64,000 nucleotides of DNA, from assembly GCA_963787835.1 (NCBI GenBank), contig CAWBEI010000002.1:928001-992000 (forward strand), written 5' to 3'. The notes under the pieces were generated by a model that saw nothing but the letters and a program-made list of their open reading frames with translations, was not told where the DNA came from and ran no database searches. Positions 10,346-51,742 of the stretch are shown piece after piece. Each line of letters opens with the position of its first letter. Position 1 is the first letter of the stretch. Position numbers and translations under genes: made by a program. The DNA is from Ignavibacteriota bacterium (GTDB lineage Bacteria; Bacteroidota; Ignavibacteria; Palsa-1295).

Positions 10346-10419
10346 TGGCCTCGGCAGGACTCGAACCTGCGACACCCAGTTTAGGAAACTGATGTTCTAT
10401 CCAACTGAACTACGAGGCC
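10346..10419 (-). tRNA. tRNA-Arg (anticodon CCT)
   Basis: Reverse complement GGCCTCG...TTCCTAA anticodon loop...GGTTCGAGTCC...CGAGGCCA folds as a cloverleaf; CCA not encoded. Confidence 0.95.
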
Positions 10420-27824: not shown

Positions 27825-28055
27825 ATGCCATCATCAACCCGACTTTTTCAGCAAAAGCACAAGGCGCTTATTAAGCGACTGGAGGAAGTTTTGGCTAAGA
27901 AGGAATGGACTCAGCGAGACCTTGCAAATGCCACCGGACTGAAAGATTCTGCAATCAGTCGAATAATGCATGGTAATGCGAATCTTACATTGAAGACGAT
28001 TAGCTTGCTTGAGGATCGCTTGGGGGAGCAACTCATCAATGTTTCAGAAGTATGA
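27825..28055 (+). CDS. XRE/Cro-family HTH regulator (controller-protein-like)
   Basis: WTQRDLANATGLKDSAISRIMHGNANLTLKTI; GAGGGG SD. Confidence 0.85.
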   Translation: MPSSTRLFQQKHKALIKRLEEVLAKKEWTQRDLANATGLKDSAISRIMHGNANLTLKTISLLEDRLGEQLINVSEV

Positions 28056-28125
28056 CTTTATACGTTGTGAAGATTTTTCTGTCCGCTCTTGCGTTCTCCA
28101 ACTTGAAGGATCAATTTTAGCAGGC

Positions 28126-29262
28126 ATGAAAAGTCTTAAGACTCTATCTTTATTTTCTGGAGGGGGTGGGCTTGACCTCGGATTTGCCGCGTCCGGCTTC
28201 AAAATACTGGCATGCGTAGAAAAGGATCCATATTCGTGCAACACGCTTAAAATCAATGCTGGCCGAAGAAAGTTCCTTGACAAACCATTAATCATTAATG
28301 AAGATATAACAAAAGTAAACGGCGCCTCAATTATTAAAACCCTTGGACTTAAGGTGGGTGATCTTGATCTAATAATTGGTGGGCCACCATGTCAGGCGTT
28401 CTCGGTATTTGGCAGGCGAGCGGGACTTTCTGACCCGCGAGGAAACCTAATTTGGGAATACCTTCGATTGATTCGAGAAACGATGCCAATGAGCTTTGTT
28501 CTGGAAAACGTTAGTGGGCTTAAAACAATAGATGACGGAAAGCTTTACCTTCAGCTCCTTGAAGCTTTAACGTGTGATGGTCAATACACTGTTTCGGCAC
28601 AAGACTATCACGTTGCTAATTACGGAATACCGCAATTTAGGCATCGGGTCTTTTTTGTGGGTCATCGGAAGGGCAAAATACTTCCCCGCATGCAAGAGTC
28701 GCATGGCGACTCCAATCTATTCGGAGGACTGATTCCATACGTTGCTTCAGGAGATGCGCTCAGGGGCTTACCGAAGCCTGGACCGTCTGTTGGCATAGCG
28801 AATCATATAGGACGCTTGCACAGTCCAGTAATAGTGCAAAGATATCGAGGCCTCCGATTCGGTGAAAGAGATCCAAAAACGCGAATCAATAAGCTTGATC
28901 CAGAAAGGCCAAGTTTTACCATAATAGTTGGATCAGACGCAGGTGGAGGAAAAGGACATGTCCATCCTTATCAGCCGAGAGAGGTCACACCGCGAGAGTC
29001 CGCACGCATGCAGACTTTTCCCGATTGGTGGGAATTTTACGGTCAGGGCCGACACGTTATTAGGCAAGTTGGCAATGCAGTACCTCCCTTATTCGCGGCC
29101 CAACTGGCCCAGCATCTTCTCAGGCACTTTTTTGGGGTAAGAAATACCCTAAATTATTCAGAATTAGTGGAGCTACTTGAGTTAAATTATTTAGAAAAAT
29201 GCTCACCGACCTCTTCAGCCACAAAATACATTCGAGCACGGAAACGTGGCCAGATAAGCTAG
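28126..29262 (+). CDS. DNA (cytosine-5)-methyltransferase
   Basis: Motifs I FSGGGG, IV GGPPCQ, VI ENV, VIII PQFRHRVF, IX RESARMQTFPD, X QVGNAVPP. Confidence 0.95.
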   Translation: MKSLKTLSLFSGGGGLDLGFAASGFKILACVEKDPYSCNTLKINAGRRKFLDKPLIINEDITKVNGASIIKTLGLKVGDLDLIIGGPPCQAFSVFGRRAGLSDPRGNLIWEYLRLIRETMPMSFVLENVSGLKTIDDGKLYLQLLEALTCDGQYTVSAQDYHVANYGIPQFRHRVFFVGHRKGKILPRMQESHGDSNLFGGLIPYVASGDALRGLPKPGPSVGIANHIGRLHSPVIVQRYRGLRFGERDPKTRINKLDPERPSFTIIVGSDAGGGKGHVHPYQPREVTPRESARMQTFPDWWEFYGQGRHVIRQVGNAVPPLFAAQLAQHLLRHFFGVRNTLNYSELVELLELNYLEKCSPTSSATKYIRARKRGQIS

Positions 29263-30740
29263 TCGAGCTAGCATTCATTTTCGAGGAGTTCGATGGACTT
29301 GAATATAGCCGAGATGCTATAGAAGCCCGGCTCCGTGAAATAAGCCCTCGTTTTACCTACGCAAGCTTAGCCCACGGATCAGTTCGTGATCAATCAAAGT
29401 TCCGAGACGAAATCAGTGCATATCCAGCGTATCTTGGGCTATATTCGCTGGTAAACGAAGACAGTAAATGGATCCTACGGCTTTCGGAGACAGCTAGAGC
29501 TTGTCTTATCAGAGAAGAGCCCGATGTCTCTGCGTTCCTCCGACTTCAATTGCTTTTATTTCAGTTCCCGAATGGAAGTGGAGCAACTTACTCCCATGAT
29601 CATGTTTCGATTAAACCGAATGCTGCATCTAAGACACTTGAATACATCCAAAATGAAATGCATGTGTCGCCGATGAGGCTAATTACATGTGCCTTAGCTG
29701 CTGATGCGAAACTTAGAGAGGTAGAAATTCTCAATGCTAAAGCTGATTATTCCGAAATTTACTTTCTCGCTAATGACGCAACGGTGAGAAAGCACGCCTT
29801 ACCAAATATCAATCAAGTCGCTTCGAGACTTGATGAATTCAGACGCTCTGACCGCAGACTACCCTTTCATTTTGAGCGGCGCTTTCATTTGCTGAAGCAT
29901 ACTGAGATTTTCGAAATCAATGCCGGCGGAATAACTTTTAGAGAAACGGAAGGAGTCGAAGACTCCACTAATCTCAAAGCGAAGATCGAAGCTATACTAC
30001 GAGAAAAAGTAGAGTTCAGAGGATTTGATCACTCGCGCAGTGCAGCAGAGATTGGAAATGTTGTGAGAAGCGGAACATGGGGAAAGTATTTCGACGGCGT
30101 GCAGTCCCTCTCAGCTTCTACCGTCGAGATTTTAGGTGTATCGGAGCTTGCAACAAGAGAAATTGCTATCGACCGTCGCTTGCCAATTCAAACTGCCGCA
30201 ATCCAACCTCGCTCCGATGAATTACCATTCAATTATCCATGGAGAGACTTTCAGCCGCTCACGCCATCTGCCAACCCATCATCATCACGCACTAGGGGTC
30301 AATACGCAGACCCAGAGGTCACTAGAATAAAGTTACAGAGAAGAAATCTGACACATAAGATTCTCCTCGGCAAAATAGATGAATTGCTAGCGACTCACAA
30401 TGCAAGAACCCAAGAAACAGAGCATATCGATCTATTTGCTTCCATTCCTAACGACGGATCATTCCTTTTTGAAGTCAAAAGTGGAGGGGAGAACCTATTA
30501 GATCAAATTCGAAAAGGTATTAGCCAACTGTATGAATACCGCTATCGGTATGCATCTGCCGTTCCGAATGATGTTCATCTGTGTCTTGTCTTGGGTGAAC
30601 AGCCAATTCGTGTGCCATGGGTCAAAGACTATCTGATTAATGACAGGGGAATTGCGCTCTGCTGGGTTAATCAGGACGGTGTTTTTGAATATCCGGCGGC
30701 TTGCGCTCATGCTCTCGACCCTCTTTTCGGAAGAGGTTAA
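29199..30740 (+). CDS. Putative restriction endonuclease (C-terminal PD-(D/E)XK)
   Basis: Overlaps the MTase end; HIDLF...FEVKS...QIRKGISQLYEY nuclease-like C-terminus. Confidence 0.6.
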   Translation: MLTDLFSHKIHSSTETWPDKLVELAFIFEEFDGLEYSRDAIEARLREISPRFTYASLAHGSVRDQSKFRDEISAYPAYLGLYSLVNEDSKWILRLSETARACLIREEPDVSAFLRLQLLLFQFPNGSGATYSHDHVSIKPNAASKTLEYIQNEMHVSPMRLITCALAADAKLREVEILNAKADYSEIYFLANDATVRKHALPNINQVASRLDEFRRSDRRLPFHFERRFHLLKHTEIFEINAGGITFRETEGVEDSTNLKAKIEAILREKVEFRGFDHSRSAAEIGNVVRSGTWGKYFDGVQSLSASTVEILGVSELATREIAIDRRLPIQTAAIQPRSDELPFNYPWRDFQPLTPSANPSSSRTRGQYADPEVTRIKLQRRNLTHKILLGKIDELLATHNARTQETEHIDLFASIPNDGSFLFEVKSGGENLLDQIRKGISQLYEYRYRYASAVPNDVHLCLVLGEQPIRVPWVKDYLINDRGIALCWVNQDGVFEYPAACAHALDPLFGRG

Positions 30741-30818
30741 AATCTGCATTGCAAGCAAATCACTGATTTAGCGCCTAAACAAAAATTCGCATTTCACAGC
30801 ACCTCCGAAAAAGCGTTG

Positions 30819-31030
30819 TATATTTGGTAGTGAGATAATGAGCACCAAGTGTCTATAAGAATAGTGTTCGTGTCATGTTCATTGACATCTGGGAGGCGCC
30901 GGCGGTAGTTTTCGCTATGAACGAGTTCTCTGAGAAAAGAATTTGTTGCAACAAATGGCGAAAACAGCCTGGAAACGAGGATTCATCGGGAACTCACAAG
31001 AAAGAAAAATGGCACCTGTTTCTGGGGGAA
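30819..31030 (+). repeat. ~200-bp dispersed structured element, copy 1
   Basis: Aligns with 49959-50159; TATATTTG box, conserved hairpins, small ORF 30917-31051. Confidence 0.8.
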
Positions 31031-31034
31031 AGGA

Positions 31035-31116
31035 TGAAGTATGAAGTTTGAAGTATGAAAGGGCTCGGGAAGCAGTCGTCAACTTTCCCTCTTCATACTT
31101 CATACTTCATACTTCA
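31035..31116. repeat. Inverted heptamer tandem repeats
   Basis: (TGAAGTA)n at 31035-31059 versus (CTTCATA)n at 31091-31116; overlaps the stop of the gene ending at 31107. Confidence 0.75.
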
Positions 31117-32504
31117 AAAAGATCGTGATGGAGCTTACGGAGGGCGGGGAGGGCTTCGGCGTCCGTTACGAGGGCGATAATGCTGCGGGAGCTGGGCAGA
31201 ATGGCATGCACAACGAACGGGCGGAGGCTTCGGGCAATATCGGCAAGCAGGGCGGTATTATCATCGCCATGCTTGCGCACGATAAGCGAGAGTGCCGCAA
31301 GTGGAGCACCCTCCGTGGCTGTCATGCCGGCGTTCGAAAGCTCGCGAAGGATGGCGCGGCGGTCCTCCTTGCGGAAGATGGCGGAACTTTGCTCGGGGCT
31401 ATCCCAGGCGAGTACGGCACGGGAGCGAATTCGGGCGGCGTCCTCCTTCTGCTTTTTCGCTGCATGGGAACCCATCGGCGGGAACGCGAAAAGGACGAGA
31501 TGCTGCTCCATCGCCAGCGTCAGCGGTTTGGGGGAGCGTGTTGAAGGGGCTTCGCGGCCGAGCGTCGTGTGACCCTTGGGCAGGGAGAATGGCGTGGCGA
31601 TGCGCAGGACAGCGTCACTGGATGATCGGTCAGCCGAAAGTGGATGCGCGAAGGATGGGAACAGAATTCGCGCGCCACGGCGGCCCATCTCCTCGGCTTC
31701 GTCGAAGCTCATCGAGCGAATGAGCTTTGGCGCTTTGACGAATTCGGGATCGGCAGTGTAGAGGCCGGGGAGGGTCTTCCAGATGACGATCTCCTTCGCG
31801 CCAAGGGCGGCAGCAAGGAGCGTTGCAGTGAGATCGGAACTTTCGCTGCCCATGGTGGTCGTGATGCCATCGAGCGTGGCACCGGCAAAGCCCTGCACCA
31901 GCACGATATGGCCTTTGCGAAGCTGGGGAACGATGAGCTTTTCGGCACGGGAAGCGATCTCCTCGCGAAGCGGGGAGGCATGGCCGAACTGCTCATCGGT
32001 GATGATGACGTCCGAGGCATCGACGGCACGCACCGGGAACTCGCGATCGCGCAGCAGCGCCTCGATGAGTTCTATGGCGAGACGTTCGCCAATGGCGAGG
32101 ATGGCATCCCGCGTTCGCGGCGAAAGCTCGCGAACGATGGCAACGCCTTCGAGCAGGGCGGCAACTTCGGAGGAGATGGCCTCGAAGCGGTCGAGCAGGG
32201 CTGCTTCGTCATCAATGTCGAGCGATGCGGCAAGCTGGCGGTGCTGGGCGATGGATCGCTCGAGGACTTCTTCGGCCTCGTGCAATTTGCCATCTTCGGC
32301 AAGCTCTGCAGCGCGGGCAAGATGGCGCGTCGTGTGGCCGATCGCGCTCGTGACGAGCACGATACCGTGCGTCACACCGCCAGATTTCTTGACGCGGCGC
32401 GCGCGGGTGGCCTCGAGCTTGTAGGCCTCGTTCAGGATCTGGACGAGCGCCTCGAGGCCACGTTTCGAGCGGGCTAATGCGCCACCAAATTTATAGACAA
32501 GCAA
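31107..32504 (-). CDS. Aspartate kinase-like protein (amino acid kinase family, divergent motifs)
   Basis: VYKFGG, VTSA, GE, VQGF.G, SDLTA, GLYTADP, EAEEM..GA.IL. Confidence 0.8.
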   Translation of the reverse strand: MLVYKFGGALARSKRGLEALVQILNEAYKLEATRARRVKKSGGVTHGIVLVTSAIGHTTRHLARAAELAEDGKLHEAEEVLERSIAQHRQLAASLDIDDEAALLDRFEAISSEVAALLEGVAIVRELSPRTRDAILAIGERLAIELIEALLRDREFPVRAVDASDVIITDEQFGHASPLREEIASRAEKLIVPQLRKGHIVLVQGFAGATLDGITTTMGSESSDLTATLLAAALGAKEIVIWKTLPGLYTADPEFVKAPKLIRSMSFDEAEEMGRRGARILFPSFAHPLSADRSSSDAVLRIATPFSLPKGHTTLGREAPSTRSPKPLTLAMEQHLVLFAFPPMGSHAAKKQKEDAARIRSRAVLAWDSPEQSSAIFRKEDRRAILRELSNAGMTATEGAPLAALSLIVRKHGDDNTALLADIARSLRPFVVHAILPSSRSIIALVTDAEALPALRKLHHDLFEV

Positions 32505-43147: not shown

Positions 43148-46100
43148 TCATTGTTGAGAGAGCAGTATCACCTTCGCAGTTAAAGCACCCTGCGGCGTCT
43201 GAATGCGAAGATACAGCACACCTTCTTGAGAACTTTTCATTTCACTATTCAGATCGAGATCGAACGTCTCTTTACCACTTGTTCCCATAGGAAAAACGAT
43301 CTCCTGCTCGCCTAGCCTCTCGCCTAATGCATTATAGATCTCGAGCACATCATCGTTAGAATAATTTGCGGGCACATCGAATGTCATTTGAACAAGCCCG
43401 GTCGTTGGATTGGGCGAAATGCCATCGAGCGTAAGTATTGAAGACCCGAGCACTTGCTCTATTGTCGTGTCCCCGCATGCCTGATTCAGAATAAAGGTTG
43501 CTGTGGTATCCGGAACTGTTTCAGACGCGAGACACTGTTCGGAACCGCTTGCATCCTGGAATTGCACACCATGCAGCGTGATGCCAGTCGAAGTGACGCT
43601 TGTAACAAACGCCTCGCATACTAACTCGAATAGTTCACCAGAGGGCAGAATAGCCTCGGAACCACGCTGGAGATGAATGTTGACCGTATCGAGATGCGAT
43701 CTATTCGTTGCTCGAGAGATTTTCAATGTTTGTCCGGCAGCGCTTCCGAAAAATCCATGCGGGCTTGCGTTCAGCGGCAACGGTGATAATAGATCGGTGT
43801 TAAAAAGCAGAGTAAGATCGAATGTGCTCAAGTTCGTAGTGCTTCCTTGTTTTGCGATCACCGGAATTGTGACAAATTGACCGGCCCCGGCGCTTAAATT
43901 CGTTACGTTGAGCGCAACCTGGATCGGCGGAACGCCAATTCCGATCCCTGCGAGCGTGATCGTTGTATCGCGAACCGTTCCGTCGGCTTCTCGAATTACG
44001 ATCGATAGCTGAGCGGTTCGCGTCAGGGAATCTTCGGGTGTGAAAACTCCGCTGAAGGATCTTTGCCCTGCGGTACCCAAAGAGATCGGCAATGAATCGG
44101 CAAGTGAAAAATCTCCGGCATTCGCTCCGCCAAGTGTTATGGAATCGATCAGGATTGAGTTGCAAAGGCCATTGGAAATGGAAAACGAAAATGGTTGTGT
44201 CTGACAGGTATATGCATGAATATTTGGCGTTACGCCAAACGTAACGGTTCCTTCGCCTGAAATAACATTGATGGAAACAGGCACCGTATCCGTTCCCGCG
44301 CTTGTGGTGAATATTAGATCGACGGATTTCCGGCCCATCGCGTTGTTGGGATGATACGCGACGATAATGGTATCCGATCCGGAGGGCGGAAGCGATGGAT
44401 TAGGCGCGCGCACCAGCGAAAAACCGGTCGGATCGCTCACGCTCGAAGAATCGAATGCGGCACTAAGCGAAACGCCCTCACAGCCAGAACTAAAAACGAT
44501 GAGCGTATCGATCGCATAGGAACAGATCGGTACGGAACCCATCGGAAGGGAATCCTTCGATACACCGAAATGTGCACTCCCGGCAATACCCGTTCCGATC
44601 ACCGTGATGGTAGTATCGTACCGTCCGGTTCCGGCATACGAGACCACGAGATGGATCGAACCTGTAATGTTGCCGATCGTATTGGGAACGAACGAAAAGT
44701 TCAGAACAGTATCTTCATTTGACCGAATAGAATCTGTTAGAAGTGTCCTGTAATAAAATGGTGGATCCGTAATTATGGAATCGACTCTGAATGCTTTGCA
44801 GGCAATGTTCTTCAAGTTGAGAGTAAAAGTAGCGGAGTCGCATTCTGACGAGCGTATCGTATCGCTCAAATCAAGAGATAAGGCCTCACCAGAAGAATAT
44901 CCCGTTCCTGATAGAATAATAGAATCCAATCCTACGGAACTTGTGACATAGAGAACGCCTCTGTGGCTCCCGATAGAATCAGGCGTAAAGTGAAGAAGGA
45001 ATGTCCGCGAATTTCCAACACTTAGTACAAAAGGCCGGAAGTTGGACGATAATGAGAATAATGGACTATGGGTAGCAATGGAATCCACCGAAATATCGCC
45101 ACACCCGAAATTATTCAAGGTCACACGCTGATAGGCGTCCGAGCAAATACTGACAGAATCGAAATCGACGGTATCGCGGCCAGAAGTTCCAGAAAAGAGC
45201 AGCACATTTTTTGGCGAGGCCGTCCCGACAAGAGGGAGCACGATGATCGTATCTTCGGTATATCCATCCGGCTGGCGAATCGTGAGCAAGATACGGGCAT
45301 TCCAGACTTCCTTCTGCACGGGCCGGTAGACGATCGTCAGCTTGCCATTTCGTGTTGAAGAGAAATACCGGTAATTATTGTCATACCCGGGCGCGCTTAG
45401 CTCATGCAACGAATCGTTGAGGAATTGCACGGCAGCGATCTGAACGGAATCACAACTGTGATATTCCAGAAGGATGGGAATGATAACACTATCGCAAAGC
45501 GTGCTTTGTATGGTATCCCCGGCTGGAACTAGGGTGACAGCAGAAAGCACGGATGCCGAGAGCGTTCCATCCCCTCCATCCGTTGTGCGCCACACTCCGC
45601 CGGTATCGTCGAAGGCGATGACCACAGCGCCGCGTCCCGTGACGGCGAAGCGCTTGTCATTGATGTTATTCGGTCCACCAATAAATTTCCAGCTTATTCC
45701 GGCGTCCATAGTACGAATGATCCCATCGGGCGCAACACTCGCCGGTTCCCGGCCCTGCACATAAATAACCGATTGGCAGATATGGGAGCCTGCGATACCT
45801 CCGGTTATCCCCGAATCCCCATAATTCTTTATTTTGGATTCTGCCCAGGAACCAACCGGAACCCTAACGATCGTTGTTTGAGTCGTAAGAGTAAGCTGAT
45901 CGCTCTCACTTGCAAGAAAGAACGTCCTCGAAATGGGATCTGCGTAAGGGGTCCAGGCTTCGGATGAGGTTGTGATAGACTGCCAGGTTCTGCCGCCATT
46001 CGTCGTGTAAAGATGTGGGGAACTTGCGGCTTGCGAGGTCACAAAACCGGTAGAATCGTCCATGAAATCGATGCCAAGCGCGGTGACGGTCGAAGCAACG

Positions 46101-46594
46101 TGCGTCCAGGTTTTGCCGGTATCGCTCGAAAACATTACACCGGGATCAATATCTCGATCCGTATAGAATACCCCCCGGCTCGTCTCGCGGATTCCAGCAG
46201 GAAATCCGGCCTGCTTCACACGCACCCAGGATTGCCCTCCATCGGTGGAACGATAAACGCCACTCCAACCCGTTTCGGAAGCTTCTCGAATCGTTGCCCA
46301 GCCATGCTCGCGGTCCCGAAAATAAATATCGGTGACTTGCCCTTTAATATTCGGGTTTGCAAATTGGGCTATTTCCCACGTAGTGCCGCCATCATTCGTG
46401 TAATAGATGCGCGCCGGAATGCTGCTCAAATAATGTCCCGTTCCGATCAAGCCCTCATTTGCATTAAAGAAAAATGCGGATGCACCGTAGGTGCCTTCGA
46501 GTTGCAGCACTTTCTGCCAATCCTGCGCATGCGCTGCCGAACGCCCCCAAAGAACGTTACCAAACAGAATGATAGTGCATATCAGCCGTTTCAT
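43148..46594 (-). CDS. T9SS-secreted protein: BNR/YCF48-like propeller + Ig-like repeats + CTD
   Basis: T.DGG.TW Asp-boxes, repeated F..V.IC...N.GC Ig modules, SPNPT...YNALGE...GVLYLRI; ATG overlaps upstream stop. Confidence 0.82.
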   Translation of the reverse strand: MKRLICTIILFGNVLWGRSAAHAQDWQKVLQLEGTYGASAFFFNANEGLIGTGHYLSSIPARIYYTNDGGTTWEIAQFANPNIKGQVTDIYFRDREHGWATIREASETGWSGVYRSTDGGQSWVRVKQAGFPAGIRETSRGVFYTDRDIDPGVMFSSDTGKTWTHVASTVTALGIDFMDDSTGFVTSQAASSPHLYTTNGGRTWQSITTSSEAWTPYADPISRTFFLASESDQLTLTTQTTIVRVPVGSWAESKIKNYGDSGITGGIAGSHICQSVIYVQGREPASVAPDGIIRTMDAGISWKFIGGPNNINDKRFAVTGRGAVVIAFDDTGGVWRTTDGGDGTLSASVLSAVTLVPAGDTIQSTLCDSVIIPILLEYHSCDSVQIAAVQFLNDSLHELSAPGYDNNYRYFSSTRNGKLTIVYRPVQKEVWNARILLTIRQPDGYTEDTIIVLPLVGTASPKNVLLFSGTSGRDTVDFDSVSICSDAYQRVTLNNFGCGDISVDSIATHSPLFSLSSNFRPFVLSVGNSRTFLLHFTPDSIGSHRGVLYVTSSVGLDSIILSGTGYSSGEALSLDLSDTIRSSECDSATFTLNLKNIACKAFRVDSIITDPPFYYRTLLTDSIRSNEDTVLNFSFVPNTIGNITGSIHLVVSYAGTGRYDTTITVIGTGIAGSAHFGVSKDSLPMGSVPICSYAIDTLIVFSSGCEGVSLSAAFDSSSVSDPTGFSLVRAPNPSLPPSGSDTIIVAYHPNNAMGRKSVDLIFTTSAGTDTVPVSINVISGEGTVTFGVTPNIHAYTCQTQPFSFSISNGLCNSILIDSITLGGANAGDFSLADSLPISLGTAGQRSFSGVFTPEDSLTRTAQLSIVIREADGTVRDTTITLAGIGIGVPPIQVALNVTNLSAGAGQFVTIPVIAKQGSTTNLSTFDLTLLFNTDLLSPLPLNASPHGFFGSAAGQTLKISRATNRSHLDTVNIHLQRGSEAILPSGELFELVCEAFVTSVTSTGITLHGVQFQDASGSEQCLASETVPDTTATFILNQACGDTTIEQVLGSSILTLDGISPNPTTGLVQMTFDVPANYSNDDVLEIYNALGERLGEQEIVFPMGTSGKETFDLDLNSEMKSSQEGVLYLRIQTPQGALTAKVILLSQQ

Positions 46595-48462
46595 TTCCTT
46601 GAGATCAGGATACGAACGCTGGATGGTTGCGTAGCACCCTCGGGGCTGCACCTCAACATATAAATTCCTTCCGGTAATGGAGATAGCGAGATCGAATGGC
46701 CCTGAATGATCCCGCTTTGAACGTTCCTCCCGAGAACATCTGTCATAGCATACGGCGCGCCATCATCAACACCGAGAACATTAATATAAGATGTCGCCGG
46801 ATCAGGGAAAACGCTAATCTTGTCTGGCTGCTGATCCGAAACAGCAGCTACGCTCTCGCCGCTTCCTTCTAATTCGATGAACGTATGCCCTGCGCTCGAA
46901 CCAAGTTCCAATGCCTCAAGAGCGGGACCGGCTGTGACAGGAGAAAAAGTTACTCCGATGTTCGTAGTGGCTCCGCGTTTTACGTACAATGGAAAAGGGA
47001 GCTGCGACAACGAAAAGACCGATGGATTACTCGAAACAACGGAGTCAATGATAAGCGTCGCGCAGCCGGGATTTGTGATCGCAAGTGTGCGGCGCTCGGA
47101 AGTAAATAGTGGGATCTCGCCAAAGGAAAGACTATCGGGAACTTCCAGCAAAGCGGGCATGGTAGCAGAGAATGCCGTGACGGGAAAATCGATATGTTCT
47201 TCAAATCCCCATTCTAAGCTATGAAATAACAGCCGGAGAACAATGGAGTCCTCTCCAGGACTTTTTCCAGAATATGTAAGTGAAAATGTAGTGCCATTCC
47301 CAAACAAAACGACTGGGCGAACGCTGTTCGAAATATTGCCGGAGGAATGTACAACCGTGATAGCATCGATCTGAACTCCCGTGCAGACCGAGGATGCGAC
47401 AGAAACCTTAAAGGGTACGGAACTCACCGCGCAAAGCGTATCCGATATCGTATCGACAGATATCGCAAGCGCCGAATAGACCGAGTCAGAAATAAGGCCA
47501 TCGACACCATCATAGCTGCTGACAATGTCAAATTCTTTGGTTGGGTCCAGCAATCCCCAAAAGACGGTCGAGCCCCGGTCGAAGACCCACCCTTTTGTGG
47601 CAGGTCCCTCCCATATAATAAACGGGGTTGGCCCAACGCCTTCAAAGGTGTTACCTCCATCCTGACTTCGGAGAATATCTGTGTTCGTTCCATAGATCAC
47701 GCTGTTCGCGAAGTAGAACGTTCCCGAGCAATCGTTCGCGCCATAGACCTGACCGGTGAAACTATAGATCCCGAACTCCGGCGGTGGAACAACCGCGCTC
47801 CACGTCACACCGCTATCGCCGCTAACACGAAGGGTGTCGCCACCGATAAAGACCAGGCCGTGTGCCCTGTCTGCAAAGACGCTCGCAGCGTTTCCCACTC
47901 CGCTCAGGACGAGGTTCCAGTCCGCGCCACCATCTGTTGAAAGATAGACACTGGATTGCTGAGGATCGTCATTAAAAATGGAAACGGCAATAAGCCGCGA
48001 TTCGGAGAGATAGTCGATCGCCGTTACCGAATCCCATTGGCGAATCCCTTGAACGGCCGTGAGCATCGTGTCCCCAACGGTGGTATAAAGATAGCCGTTG
48101 GAATACACAAAAAGCGTGCTGGGTGTTGCCCGCACAAGCGTGAGGGAAGGCTGCCCGAGAATCGTTTTCCAGGCGTACCATTGTTCGGTTCCCAGATACA
48201 GGCTATCGCCATCCGTAGCCCACGCTCGGTTGGAATCCTGAATGGCGATCTGCGTAACATGCCTACGGAAAACAACGGAAAACGAATTATCGACAACCCG
48301 CTCGACCGGCCCGGCGGAATCGCTGTACGCTACTAATCCAACATGCGCATTCAGGAAATCTGCGGCGCTATAAGAACCAAAATTTTGCCACGACGCGCGC
48401 GCGCTTGAACCCGCAACCAGCAAGGGAATAAGCAGACAAAAGATGAATATGCGGGGATGCAT
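46591..48462 (-). CDS. T9SS-secreted protein: propeller + Ig-like + CTD
   Basis: STDGGADW, SGDSGVTW, VFPDPA...DVLGR...GIYMLR. Confidence 0.8.
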   Translation of the reverse strand: MHPRIFIFCLLIPLLVAGSSARASWQNFGSYSAADFLNAHVGLVAYSDSAGPVERVVDNSFSVVFRRHVTQIAIQDSNRAWATDGDSLYLGTEQWYAWKTILGQPSLTLVRATPSTLFVYSNGYLYTTVGDTMLTAVQGIRQWDSVTAIDYLSESRLIAVSIFNDDPQQSSVYLSTDGGADWNLVLSGVGNAASVFADRAHGLVFIGGDTLRVSGDSGVTWSAVVPPPEFGIYSFTGQVYGANDCSGTFYFANSVIYGTNTDILRSQDGGNTFEGVGPTPFIIWEGPATKGWVFDRGSTVFWGLLDPTKEFDIVSSYDGVDGLISDSVYSALAISVDTISDTLCAVSSVPFKVSVASSVCTGVQIDAITVVHSSGNISNSVRPVVLFGNGTTFSLTYSGKSPGEDSIVLRLLFHSLEWGFEEHIDFPVTAFSATMPALLEVPDSLSFGEIPLFTSERRTLAITNPGCATLIIDSVVSSNPSVFSLSQLPFPLYVKRGATTNIGVTFSPVTAGPALEALELGSSAGHTFIELEGSGESVAAVSDQQPDKISVFPDPATSYINVLGVDDGAPYAMTDVLGRNVQSGIIQGHSISLSPLPEGIYMLRCSPEGATQPSSVRILISRK

Positions 48463-48514
48463 GGCAAAATGGTAACGCACGGTTAGTCAAAGACAGTTCG
48501 GAGGGGAAATCAGC

Positions 48515-48591
48515 GTAGCCGTGACCTTTAGGTCACGGTGTGATTGCCGAGATAGATCGCTCCGACACCGTGACCTAAAGGTCACGGCTAC
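48515..48591. repeat. GTAG-type REP doublet (REPIN), copy A
   Basis: GTAG-CCGTGAC.N6.GTCACGG ... CCGTGAC.N6.GTCACGG-CTAC, 77 bp. Confidence 0.85.
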
Positions 48592-48641
48592 GGGGTTTCA
48601 ATGTACCATAACTGGCTTTTGCGCGCAACGCAGAATTTGTT

Positions 48642-49739
48642 CTACCGCTGGCCTACAACAATCCAACTTGTGCTGCCTTTTATTCCTACAGCGCAAACAG
48701 TATTCCCTTTCATCGAAAAAGCATTTGTTACATAATCGAGGGCTCCACCATTGTAAAGAGTATCGTATCTATGCCAGGACAGACCATTCCAGTGAGAAAT
48801 AAAGCCGCCATCTCCGGCGACCATGAAATCGTTAGCAGAATTTCCGTTGATACCGAATATTCCAATATACTCACCACCACCAACACTGTTGGTGACTTGT
48901 CCACTATCGCTTTCCCAAGCACCGTTATCTTTAGAATGCCAGACATGAGAACCACCGATATACACAATCTTATGGCTCGCGCTATCGATTTCCCACACAC
49001 TCCCTACACCATCAACACCCGGGCCAATATTACCTATGTTCTGAAGGTTAATCTCAGACCATGCGTTTCCATTGTAGTGGAGCAATTCCGACACTGCTGT
49101 TTGTGGGTTAAAACCATCCGCCCAAATGTCATTATCACTCGTTCCCCAAATAGAGCCAAGAGAATTAGTGGTTGGCGTTGACATCCTCGTCCAGTTTGTT
49201 CCATCGAAATGGAGGATAGTGCCGGAGTCGCCTACAAAATACATGTCAGAGGAGGAGGTTCCCCAAGCAGAATGAAGCCATTTCGGATACCCAGAAACAA
49301 TATTTTCCTCTCTGTAGGTTGGTGCAATCCCGTTGCCAGTGTAATGAAAGATAATACTCGCATCAGTGAGCCAGTAGTCACTTGTATCGAACCCAAAAAT
49401 CGAAAAACCGCTAAGACTACCATTAATGTTTTTTTCGATTGTTGGGTCTGGCGAATATAGGTTAAGTCTCTGCCATGTCGAGCCATTCCATTCATACATG
49501 TAGCTATTGTTAGCAAGGATACAATTCGGTCCAAAGACCCAGCAGCCCGTCATGTTGTTTTCATTCCCGACATTGAGATATTGCGTCCAAATGAAGTTGT
49601 GGCTGGTTGTGTCAATTGAGGTATTATTACATGTATCGCATTCGGTGGGATCAGCCGAGCTTGGGTGCTTGCAGGAATAAAAAACTCCCACAACCAAACA
49701 TAAAGGAACCAGGGCCGCGTGCGTTATTAACCAGCGCAT
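48642..49739 (-). CDS. Beta-propeller-like lipoprotein (DTTSHNF family)
   Basis: Lipobox FYSC; DTTSHNF.W; repeated WGTS..D..VG..G.I.H.DG..W. Confidence 0.75.
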   Translation of the reverse strand: MRWLITHAALVPLCLVVGVFYSCKHPSSADPTECDTCNNTSIDTTSHNFIWTQYLNVGNENNMTGCWVFGPNCILANNSYMYEWNGSTWQRLNLYSPDPTIEKNINGSLSGFSIFGFDTSDYWLTDASIIFHYTGNGIAPTYREENIVSGYPKWLHSAWGTSSSDMYFVGDSGTILHFDGTNWTRMSTPTTNSLGSIWGTSDNDIWADGFNPQTAVSELLHYNGNAWSEINLQNIGNIGPGVDGVGSVWEIDSASHKIVYIGGSHVWHSKDNGAWESDSGQVTNSVGGGEYIGIFGINGNSANDFMVAGDGGFISHWNGLSWHRYDTLYNGGALDYVTNAFSMKGNTVCAVGIKGSTSWIVVGQR

Positions 49740-49782
49740 GATGTTTTGTAACGTGTGGGATGCAGGAGACAGTTCGGGCAGT

Positions 49783-49859
49783 GTAGCCGTGACCTTCAGG
49801 TCACGGTGTGATTGCCGAGATAGATCGCTTCGACACCGTGACCTGAAGGTCACGGCTAC
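49783..49859. repeat. GTAG-type REP doublet (REPIN), copy B
   Basis: 74/77 identical to copy A. Confidence 0.85.
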
Positions 49860-49958
49860 AAACTCCCATGCATATTGGGTCTTTTGGCATAGGCACCAAC
49901 TTCCAAAAGAATTTTCCATTATTTTCAGAAATCGCTTGACTTATGGAAATTCCATGCG

Positions 49959-50159
49959 TATATTTGAGAGTGTGATTATAGGCACCAATGTCTGTAGGAA
50001 CAGCAATTATCGTTCATTGACAATTCGGCGGTAGATTTCACCATGAACGAGTTCTCCGTGAAAAGAATTTGTTGCAACGAATGGCGAAATCAGCCTGGAA
50101 ACGATAGTATGTCGGGAACTCGCGAAAAAGAAAAATGGCACCTATTTCTGGGAGAATGA
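49959..50159 (+). repeat. ~200-bp dispersed structured element, copy 2
   Basis: Aligns with 30819-31030; small ORF 50043-50159. Confidence 0.8.
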
Positions 50160-50183: not shown

Positions 50184-50207
50184 CCGTGACCTGAAGGTCA
50201 CGGCTAC
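50184..50207. repeat. Single GTAG-type REP
   Basis: CCGTGAC-CTGAAG-GTCACGG-CTAC; overlaps the TAG of the oxidoreductase gene. Confidence 0.8.
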
Positions 50208-51742
50208 ACGGGCTGCTCTTTCGCCATCATCGGCGGCGGCTTCATAAAGCTCGGGCGGGCGATAGCTTTGGGCGGCGGGGGCAATTCTACTTCCATCGGC
50301 AGATCGGCTCGGACGATGTTCGATGGCACGCTTTTGTTGCCAGCCAGATCGTACGCGCGGATGTAGTATTGATAAGAAATTCCCGCGGCGGCGAGATGAT
50401 CCGTCCACATCGAAGTGGTAATGGAGTAAATATGCGAGAAGGTCTTGCCGCCATCGTCCGAACGCCAGATCTCGTAACCCATGACGGCTTCGTTATCGGT
50501 GGCGGGTTTCCAATTTAAACGAATGTTGCCAGATCGAACGAGTACGGAAAGGGGACCTCCCCCTGCCCCCTCCTTGGCAAGGAGGGGGTTCCAAACGGGC
50601 GCTTCGGTATCTTCGGAATACGGAGCCTGGATTTCATCCTTCGGCCACAACCCGCACACGACCTGATGGAAGTTCTCATCGAGCGCTTTGCAGATATTCC
50701 AGTAAATGCACTTTACTATTTTATCGGAGTTCCCAGAGCGCGCTTTGTTCGGAAGGTCGGGATCGGCAAGCAGCGCGCGCGCCATGCCGATAAGGTCGGC
50801 TCGGTCATCCTGTAATACTTCTTCGGCAAATTCGGGAGATGGAATTTTGCCGGTAGCGACAACAGGCGTTTGGAACCCATGCCGGCGCAGCATTCTGCGC
50901 GAAGCTTCGGCCATGTGAAGATTGTATCCATCTGGATATTCCATCGGCGGCATGCAGCGGTCGCCGGAATAGCCGGTATAAGGATAGAGGACTTCGCCCT
51001 CCTTATGGACCGCATCCTCGAATTTTCCACCTGCAGAAAGGGAAATATAATCGACGCCCTCCTGTGCAAATTTTAGCGCAATGATCGCCGATTCTTCCGT
51101 GGTGTATCCGCCTTTGATGCACTCTTCACCCAGGAAGCGGACTCCGATGGGGAAATCATTCCCGGTCATTTCGCGCACTTTTTTTATGATCTGCAATGGC
51201 AAACGGATTCTGTTATCGAGCGATTTCCCGCCGTAGAGATCGGGACGCTTGTTGCGTTTGGATAAAAAACTCGAAAGCGTGTAGGCGTGCGCCATGTGCA
51301 TTTCCACGCCATCGTATCCGCACTCACGCGCGCGGAGCGCAGCCTGGCCGTATTGCTCGATGATGAGCTGAATATCGGAAATGGAAAGATCTTCGATCTT
51401 CTGCCGCCATCCGGAACGCGCGATCTTCAGGAAATGAATGATCTGTGGGACGGCTTTGGAATCGCTGGTAGCGTGGATCTTTTTTGCAAGCTCGGTGAGT
51501 CCGGGCTTGAATTCATCGCCGCAAATTCGGAGCAAAGGACCCGACTTCGCGGAATGCACCGCCATCGCCTCGATCACGATAAGTCCGACACCGCCCTTTG
51601 CAAAGCGCACGTAGCGATCGGTAATATCCTGATTGACGAATCCATCCTCGCCCGAGAGCCGCGTGACCATCGCCGGCAGTACCAGCCGGTTGGGGAGGGT
51701 CATGGAATTGATGGGGTAGGGGGTAAAAAGTTTTTGATACAT
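50204..51742 (-). CDS. NADH:flavin oxidoreductase (Old Yellow Enzyme family) with C-terminal Fn3-like domain
   Basis: NRLVLPAM, GYDGVEMHMAHAY, N.R.D.YGG..NR, ARALLADP; W..ATDN.AV.GYEI.RS...Y.IRAYD.AGN.S. Confidence 0.88.
   Translation of the reverse strand: MYQKLFTPYPINSMTLPNRLVLPAMVTRLSGEDGFVNQDITDRYVRFAKGGVGLIVIEAMAVHSAKSGPLLRICGDEFKPGLTELAKKIHATSDSKAVPQIIHFLKIARSGWRQKIEDLSISDIQLIIEQYGQAALRARECGYDGVEMHMAHAYTLSSFLSKRNKRPDLYGGKSLDNRIRLPLQIIKKVREMTGNDFPIGVRFLGEECIKGGYTTEESAIIALKFAQEGVDYISLSAGGKFEDAVHKEGEVLYPYTGYSGDRCMPPMEYPDGYNLHMAEASRRMLRRHGFQTPVVATGKIPSPEFAEEVLQDDRADLIGMARALLADPDLPNKARSGNSDKIVKCIYWNICKALDENFHQVVCGLWPKDEIQAPYSEDTEAPVWNPLLAKEGAGGGPLSVLVRSGNIRLNWKPATDNEAVMGYEIWRSDDGGKTFSHIYSITTSMWTDHLAAAGISYQYYIRAYDLAGNKSVPSNIVRADLPMEVELPPPPKAIARPSFMKPPPMMAKEQPV

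Follow-up and report, generated by a model that had tools for sequence, protein, structure and literature searches.

An outward-facing, non-coding DNA element with a predicted SOS operator on one border of low-GC islets in a genome of a Kapabacteria family

A non-coding DNA element that carries a sigma70-type promoter and a predicted SOS (LexA) operator is repeated about 70 times in the 3.57 Mb genome G000, where it mostly lies on one border of low-GC islets with its promoter facing outward. Our main reading, to which we would give a probability of somewhat under one half (about 0.45), is that the element is a non-coding cassette whose promoter would be bound by LexA and looped, would be released by DNA damage, and would serve as a one-sided homology anchor for the swapping of accessory genes. 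The repeat is neither a small-protein gene nor a conserved folded RNA, and what has been conserved in it appears to be the geometry of the DNA. It is a real family of DNA elements, apparently undescribed: the literature covered contains no account of LexA in Kapabacteria or of dispersed LexA-boxed repeats at island borders. The window, by which we mean the whole stretch of 64,000 nucleotides that was analysed (G000:C2:928001-992000), contains two intergenic copies about 19 kb apart, as the initial annotation of this DNA had noted. G000 is the source genome of the window, other G numbers denote genomes of related species, and all are assemblies from uncultured cells. The labels of homologous proteins indicate Candidatus Kapabacteria as the lineage.

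Iterated nhmmer searches of G000 returned 57 matches to the repeat, a number far above chance expectation, with 54 of them at E<1e-20, and about 18 further elements carry the same promoter with a variant body. By BLASTN the body type of the window copies is present in 5 of the 18 other genomes of the family and in none of the 12 outside it. The exact 3' pattern occurs 46 times in G002, 31 in G006, 7 in G014, 5 in G009 and not at all in G005, and the end motif of another body type 14-47 times in seven other species. For the alignment we fetched 40 of the 46 pattern matches of G002 and 20 of the 31 of G006; 57 of these 60 loci, both window copies and five other G000 copies make up its 64 rows, with L104, L132 and L140 left out as atypical. 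On the whole window at the gathering threshold, Rfam reports one tRNA only (a minus-strand gene at 10346-10419) and nothing in the repeat, and on four element loci at E<=1 only matches to Acido-Lenti-1, all outside the element body. The nhmmer matches, the promoter anatomy and the Rfam searches, in which no family matches the element, bear out the earlier description of a dispersed, promoter-bearing and unannotated family, and BLASTN recovers it in relatives. One Acido-Lenti-1 match above the gathering score (L017:5519-5566) lies in the islet behind an rplS-like copy and resembles a REP hairpin.

Two other identities were considered and set aside. A CRISPR-like mini-array or guide RNA would have unique spacers, and the variable parts of the element are types common to copies together with heptamer expansions. 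As for a DnaA-box element, the DnaA-box consensus occurs in only 41 of 117 copies (14 of 57 in G000); it falls in a 10-bp insertion of element bodies, for example in L092, L094 and L098. Judged by eye against GC skew, no replication-strand bias is evident.

Each copy runs in the order AT-rich tract, sigma70-type promoter, GCACC (site 1), variable region, conserved body and a second, GGCACC-TATTTC-N5-GAA site (site 2), and the variable region is often filled with heptamer arrays. Copy 1, on the plus strand, stands after a low-GC cargo of two plus-strand genes (28009..30740), a C5 DNA methyltransferase gene (28009-29262) and a 513-aa gene without a Pfam or PADLOC family (29199-30740), which are likely a restriction-modification pair. 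Its promoter (30778..30824) consists of an AT-rich upstream tract and the -10 hexamer TATATT at 30819-30824, without a canonical -35, and is followed by site 1 (30829..30846), a predicted SOS box of the form TGA-N8-GCACC with 24 bp from the start of the -10 to CACC. The body (30847..31006) includes phased A-tracts and holds a weak tandem box (30853-30864), GTTCATTGA (30877-30885), a central TTTC-N3-ATGAAC-GAGTTC motif (30910-30928) and GGGAACTC (30988-30995), and an incidental 44-aa ORF runs from 30917 to 31051 on the same strand. Site 2 (31007..31031), which is half an SOS box plus TTTC-N5-GAA, lies 170 bp or about 15 helical turns from site 1. Between it and the convergent core gene, which is aspartate kinase-like and on the minus strand (31107..32504), is a hairpin of inverted heptamer repeats (ATGAAGT / TTCATAC arrays, 31034..31112); these heptamer repeats are a separate repeat class, often found within and beside the element.

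Copy 2, also on the plus strand, has behind it three minus-strand genes (43148..49919), two with BNR/Ig-like domains and one of these with a type IX secretion tail. It has an additional upstream GGCACC (site 0, 49892..49897), 89 bp or 8 turns before site 1, as in a gene-bearing long form of the element described below. The promoter is TTGACT-N17-TATATT (49936..49964), site 1 a predicted SOS box TGT-N8-GCACC (49969..49986), and the body (49987..50132) again contains GTTCATTGA (50012-50020), the central motif (50036-50054) and GGGAACTC (50114-50121), with site 2 (50133..50157) 156 bp or about 14 turns from site 1. The convergent core gene, on the minus strand at 50204..51742, belongs to the NADH:flavin oxidoreductase family. 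On either side of copy 2, at 49788-49860 and 50184-50208, are REP-like hairpins of the GTGACCTGAAGGTCACGGCTAC family, which has 45 testable matches in the genome, and REP hairpins often abut the upstream edge of the element.

The operator assignment is derived from lexA (upstream regions of L031-L048 and L059) and recA (L011, L067 and L071-L085). All 19 lexA loci and all 15 recA loci of the Kapabacteria family have a TGC-N8-GCA(CC) palindrome upstream, and in 20 loci of other families at most 8 of the 10 palindrome positions match. The candidate LexA box of the family is (G)GTGC-N8-GCAC(C), often in 16-bp tandem at lexA, and a canonical LexA (TIGR00498) is encoded in G000. The element carries the palindrome found at lexA and recA, and we infer that its site 1 is an SOS operator bound by LexA. 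GCACC lies 23 or 24 bp after the start of the -10 in all 101 copies; a -35 TTG(A/C) stands 17 bp upstream of the -10 in 52 of the 101 and a TG-rich upstream context in 38; and site 1 has T at -12 in 54 of 54 and G at -11 in 48 of 54, its CAC part being forced by the search anchor. The initial annotation had drawn attention instead to a TAnnTTTG box, which is indeed present as TATATTTG at 30819 and 49959, but which recurs in only 10 of 97 listed hexamer contexts family-wide; the conserved part of that region is the sigma70 -10 TATATT.

In low-copy genomes the same promoter and box precede ssb, recQ, DNA polymerase IV, vsr and a PA0069 radical SAM gene. The combination occurs 72 times in G000, 52-60 times in four congeners (57 in G002), 21-34 times in six and 6-9 times in four, with 6 each in G010 and G011, 2-15 in other genera, 0-3 outside the family and 0-1 in controls. 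As in known LexA regulons, the palindromic box is found at lexA, recA, dinB, ssb and recQ, but here most G000 boxes lie in orphan repeats and not before repair genes. The box resembles the TGC-N8-GCA reportedly described by Mazon et al. as the LexA box of Fibrobacter succinogenes. It differs from both Bacteroidetes motifs given in PMC8565304.

Several smaller observations concern these boxes and promoters. In six species a short variant element occupies the lexA leader, with its second site located 108-111 bp further downstream, and lexA of G006 (L049, L059) is split into two overlapping frames, by a frameshift or an assembly error. Some defence genes in the cargo (SIR2-like, methyltransferase-like, vsr) have a promoter and SOS box of their own immediately at the start codon, in some cases in a back-to-back arrangement with an element (L017:3754-4566; L190, L196; G000:C4:132036 and C2:461428), and SOS control of these genes is possible. 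Three G002 copies (L107, L110, L124) lack a promoter and directly follow a Cro/C1 HTH gene.

The distance between sites 1 and 2, which ranges from 146 to 303 bp, clusters near 147, 158, 169, 180, 191, 202, 214, 225 and 237 bp. In 101 copies its period is 11.2 bp (R 0.61), which none of 2000 jitter nulls reached, and the phasing holds on distinct distance values (p=0.0075) and after sequence clustering into 52 clusters (p<0.001) or 33 (p=0.004), though not at the coarsest level of 16 clusters (p=0.26). In 22 distinct metagenome copies it was replicated at 11.3 bp (p=0.002). The inner segment of 97 copies measures only 94-97, 105-107 or 116-118 bp, in steps of about 10.5 bp, the period at which A/T tracts also peak, and in another body type TTCATGAA palindromes lie 72-74, 85-86 or 94-95 bp apart (n=13). 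This spacing in whole helical turns is a property of the core type: it is not significant in copies of at least 205 bp (p=0.37), in the variant bodies of G000 and G009 (R 0.27 at 11 bp, n=25) or in G004 between site 1 and the last palindrome (p=0.5). The copies are not independent of one another, and a few founder indels could be inflating the signal. Site 2 is a half box only, and the G004 body has no second GCACC.

The predicted LexA site at the promoter, taken together with sites spaced by whole turns, makes damage-released protein-DNA loops likely. With its operator-like sites 90-300 bp apart in a phase of about 11 bp and phased A-tracts between them, the arrangement resembles the repressor loops of lac O1-O3 and araBAD and the accessory regions of Xer and resolvase sites such as cer and psi. 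In-vivo loop periods of 10.95-11.6 bp are given in PMC1762422. The difference is that the present arrangement is repeated about 70 times, away from any regulated operon. For LexA itself, looping is no more than a suggestion in the literature covered (PMC4756842).

The position of the element is strongly one-sided. In G000 GC content is lower behind the promoter than ahead of it in 53 of 53 testable copies (46.3% vs 52.2%), as is GC3 in 51 of the 53, and the average GC dip lies about 0.5-4 kb behind the element. The same measure gives 330 of 618 (53%) for promoter-facing gaps and 27 of 45, 22 of 37 and 16 of 33 for REP repeats. Polarity recurs in 51 of 60 copies from G002 and G006, in 14 of 17 metagenome copies, and in 16 of 17 from G004 and 12 of 16 from G009, two sets that cover 20 of 34 and 17 of 55 promoters, the presence of a body being one ground for their selection; it is weak in the variant elements of G000 (13 of 18). 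Among 188 low-GC islets 59 have one element and none has two, and an element stands on 11 of the 15 with the lowest GC. The other 129 have none, and the element is therefore not required for gene gain. The polarity could also have arisen after the fact, with elements merely persisting at islet edges. Inspection by eye showed no conserved motif on the opposite border of the islets. Of the 108 upstream ORFs listed, 69 were scanned, and those that have a family comprise restriction-modification, Cas9, Schlafen, GmrSD and IS1595 members among others, and many type IX-secreted or BNR-repeat proteins, secreted proteins being common genome-wide. Copies L099, L120, L122, L125, L126 and L128 directly follow a secreted-protein C-terminus.

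Comparison between species indicates that sites are shared while what lies behind them changes. Thirty-seven of the 58 placeable copies of G002 and G006 stand at sites that also have an element in G000 (26 core, 11 variant; null 1.7%), and the cargo behind shared sites is mostly different between species. At the copy 1 site G002, G006 and G014 have an element and G009 a degenerate remnant, while G010 and G011 have neither islet nor element; the different cargo of G002 there includes a Schlafen-helicase gene. The copy 2 site has a degenerate variant element in G006 and none in G009, G010 and G011, and the G002 locus ended before the gene end. Conversely, the same cargo (Cas9, a type ISP restriction-modification gene, a dehydrogenase) occurs at different sites with 87-92% identity, against 66-93% and mostly under 85% for the flanking core genes. 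Cas9 lies behind an element at three chromosomal sites (L098, L140 and G000:C2:1212923-1215466), intact (1127 aa) in G002 and partial in G000 and G006. In L224 and L238 a near-100% identical tract of about 1.3 kb, comprising the element and half a cargo gene, occurs at two different sites, one of them upstream of lexA, and ends 21 bp past site 2; this tract is possibly an assembly chimera. Crossover points are spread over different parts of the element, consistent with ordinary homologous recombination among repeats that have no special function.

Under our main reading, LexA would bind site 1 and loop to site 2 with the help of a factor that binds TTCA/TGAA (TTCATGAA / TTCATTATGAA sites), and this loop would keep the element promoter off. 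SOS induction would open all copies while RecA is high, and DNA linked to an element could then recombine at any copy on one side, the other side being joined through other homology (paralogous cargo, REP repeats) or illegitimately. Such one-sided recombination at element copies would, we propose, lead cargo to collect behind the promoter. A more far-reaching form of this reading, which we offer tentatively and think rather unlikely to hold as a whole, would make the family an equivalent of the integron that needs no integrase and is spread over the chromosome. Dozens of LexA-looped cassettes at islet borders, whose ancestor would have carried the gene for a RecA-fold protein lacking an ATP-binding loop, would occupy fixed chromosomal slots and, during the SOS response, allow defence and secreted-protein genes to be captured and exchanged on one side only. 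The RecA-fold protein would serve in trans as their loader or as a mediator of recombination. The favoured reading and its rivals are not fully exclusive.

In integrons intI points away from the variable DNA, and so does the LexA-boxed gene of the long form here. Otherwise the likeness is one of logic only. According to PMC3108266, integrons have an SOS-controlled intI whose LexA-boxed promoter lies beside a variable array of accessory genes, with exchange proposed to be timed by stress, which is the same logic as that proposed here; the integron is a single array, however, whereas the present family comprises about 70 small platforms. The element has no IntI, its enclosed gene encoding a RecA fold without Walker A, and none of the three PF00589 genes of G000 stands beside an element. 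In all 53 copies the promoter points outward from the low-GC cargo and would not drive it as an integron promoter drives its cassettes, and no attC-like sites were seen between cargo genes when the junctions were read by eye.

Many bacterial hotspots of foreign genes are thought to lack an integrase or transposase, and what marks such hotspots is the question addressed here. Among the 15 most AT-rich islets, 11 are marked on one edge by a conserved, oriented sequence with a predicted SOS operator, and if the main reading is true, stress would be linked to gene capture without an integrase, by way of a short element. Even if it is false, the family offers a candidate LexA box for a Kapabacteria family, distinct from the two published for Bacteroidetes, a naturally occurring example of operator phasing at 11 bp that is recorded in the way a repeat has evolved, and an undescribed, SOS-linked family of RecA-fold proteins.

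That protein family belongs to the long form, in which a gene of 230-480 aa is enclosed between site 1 and the body. Its product has no Pfam or NCBIfam match; the predicted structure (pLDDT 82.5) matches RecA-superfamily domains (T7 gp4 helicase with Z 13.7, rmsd 4.1 and 189 aligned; KaiC, DnaB and RAD51 paralogues tied), and its structural neighbours in the Atlas are DnaB_C-like, so that modelling points to a RecA/DnaB fold and not a transposase fold. Walker A is present in 2 of 126 homologues. The family has 302 representatives at 50% identity and 1-8 matches per genome in 15 of the 18 family genomes, with none in the 12 outside, and the number of genes does not track that of elements (5 matches and 6 promoters in G010, 2 and 57 in G002). 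Long-form loci have the polarity in 20 of 25 cases, the box in 20 of 27 and the body motif in 15 of 29, and part of the motif can fall within the variable tail of the protein. An upstream site lies 83-93 bp before site 1 in 11 of the 29; among short copies GCAC(C/T) is found upstream in 19 of 101, at 81-95 bp before site 1 in 9 of these, including window copy 2. At two sites one species has the gene-bearing form and another the form without the gene, and the short copies probably arose from the long cassette by deletion.

SOS proteins of the SulA/ImuA type have a RecA fold and lack ATPase activity. The enclosed protein has in common with them the fold, the degenerate Walker A and an SOS box upstream; it differs in having several paralogues per genome at islet borders and, in the loci shown, no imuB-dnaE2 neighbours. 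In L279 and L281 the long-form gene is directly followed by a CRISPR-like repeat array, with a Cas2-like ORF (by eye) next in L281, and its G000 orthologue sits before a ribosomal L25-like gene. At the start of contig C2, in L030 (G000:C2:2477-12745), typA-like, RecA-fold and toxin-antitoxin genes are duplicated in inverted orientation and show small frameshifts, which may be an artefact of assembly.

The best surviving rival, which we nonetheless regard as unlikely, is that the element is a selfish, MITE-like, non-autonomous derivative of the RecA-fold cassette, copied by a trans-acting enzyme along with incoming DNA or beside it; a mobilisation complex and host tolerance would then require that the SOS box and the phased sites be kept, and cargo would be exchanged only because the element is a repeat. 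A MITE had been among the first suggestions for the two window copies, and the label fits in part, since the short copies look as if they derive from a gene-bearing cassette that has lost its gene, and since they move between sites. MITEs and REP/REPIN-RAYT repeats are likewise short, dispersed, intergenic, homogenised within lineages and derived without a gene from longer gene-bearing forms. In the genome comparison the copies are dispersed and vary in presence and absence among relatives, 21 of the 58 placeable G002/G006 copies standing at sites without an element in G000, and each species has homogenised a body of its own. Gene-bearing and gene-less forms share their ends and sites, and the GGCACC-TATTTC-N5-GAA sites, which stand at the two ends as direct repeats, look like recombination ends. 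Besides abundant REP hairpins and Y1 transposases (10 matches), the genome G000 contains 3 tyrosine recombinases. On the other side, no terminal inverted repeats, target duplication or cognate transposase were found. Three G000 sites are empty where a relative has 2-5 kb of cargo and an element, and neither they nor the alignments show terminal inverted repeats or target duplications, although at about 80% identity the species are too diverged for a strict test. No autonomous parent encoding a transposase was found, the long form encoding a protein with a predicted RecA/DnaB fold, although a transposase may act in trans. Near the three recombinases, the positions checked have no SOS-type box in the surrounding 400 bp. 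As for a phage origin, the exact 3' pattern, the only form scanned, had no match in viral contigs, one of eight scans. Unlike MITEs and REPINs, the element has a promoter and operator, a fixed orientation to foreign DNA and a length constraint in helical turns, and has no hairpin doublet; random insertion would not give a polarity of 53 in 53 with one copy per islet.

The one-sided position between foreign and core DNA would also suit a transcriptional boundary, in which a loop blocks read-through between an AT-rich islet and its core neighbour while about 70 operator clusters buffer free LexA as a sink, the islet-edge position then reflecting selection for insulation and not gene acquisition. 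We consider this distinctly unlikely. It is favoured by the excess of promoter-and-box sites, about ten to one over low-copy relatives, and by the 19 of 56 copies that face a convergent gene, where 8-82 bp separate the 3' end of the core match from the convergent stop codon. Both window copies do point at the 3' end of a convergent gene, as first described, but this does not extend to the family, since in the other 37 of the 56 the gene ahead is on the same strand. Because genes of both orientations are faced, the element is not simply a leader. A boundary would be expected on both borders, and 0 of the 59 islets has two elements; nor would an insulator need the intact outward -35 and -10 that have been kept.

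The strong promoter conserved in most copies raises the alternative of SOS-induced, largely unstructured, purine-rich small RNAs of about 150-250 nt, whose UGAA words would soak up an RNA-binding protein or which would act as antisense on convergent genes. The sense strand is 60% purine and TTCA/TGAA words recur across body types, yet indels come in whole helical turns, several copies without a promoter keep the body, and the islet polarity would be left unexplained; we judge this reading very unlikely. A structured sRNA family, as the initial annotation had proposed, finds no support as a conserved fold: RNAalifold assigns 0 pairs on 64 copies, and mean folding z is -0.5/-0.7 for the two strands (26 of 52 G000 copies). 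The stretches on which that proposal was built are present in both window copies, including GTTCAT and ATGAAC, thought to bury the ATG, the long-range GAGTTC and GAACTC, the CTAT-aaga-ATAG / CTGT-agga-ACAG hairpin (the weak tandem box of copy 1) and the palindrome ATTTGTTGCAAC(A/G)AAT. Their pairing does not carry over to the family. For the two long stems and a GAAA hairpin covariation is 0.078 against 0.077 in shuffles, 140 of 500 shuffles scoring as high, and changes on both sides of the tested stems occupy 3 of 1067 cells. Among 34 copies with the segment, the supposedly compensatory hairpin is fully Watson-Crick in 9, has one G-U in 7 and is mismatched in 18, and the ATTTGTTG palindrome is found in only 21 of 113 copies. 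That account had no place for an SOS-type operator, for helical phasing or for a position on one side of foreign islets.

It is scarcely credible that the element is a translationally locked, type I toxin-like small-protein mRNA, for although the 44-aa and 38-aa ORFs of the window copies share a frame of 38-44 codons, the ORF stops before the 3' site in 53 of 96 testable copies, all three frames are used, the peptide is charged and not hydrophobic, and the stem thought to bury its ATG lacks covariation. The test started from 117 copies, of which 4 had no 3' anchor and 17 were missed by the start-codon regex, some of these having an ATG. The distance from ATG to the end is spread over the three frames as 51/38/7 in the 96 copies, and the W/R-H-L frame survives in 19 of them. 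In the G002 orthologue of copy 1 the ORF stops at codon 3.
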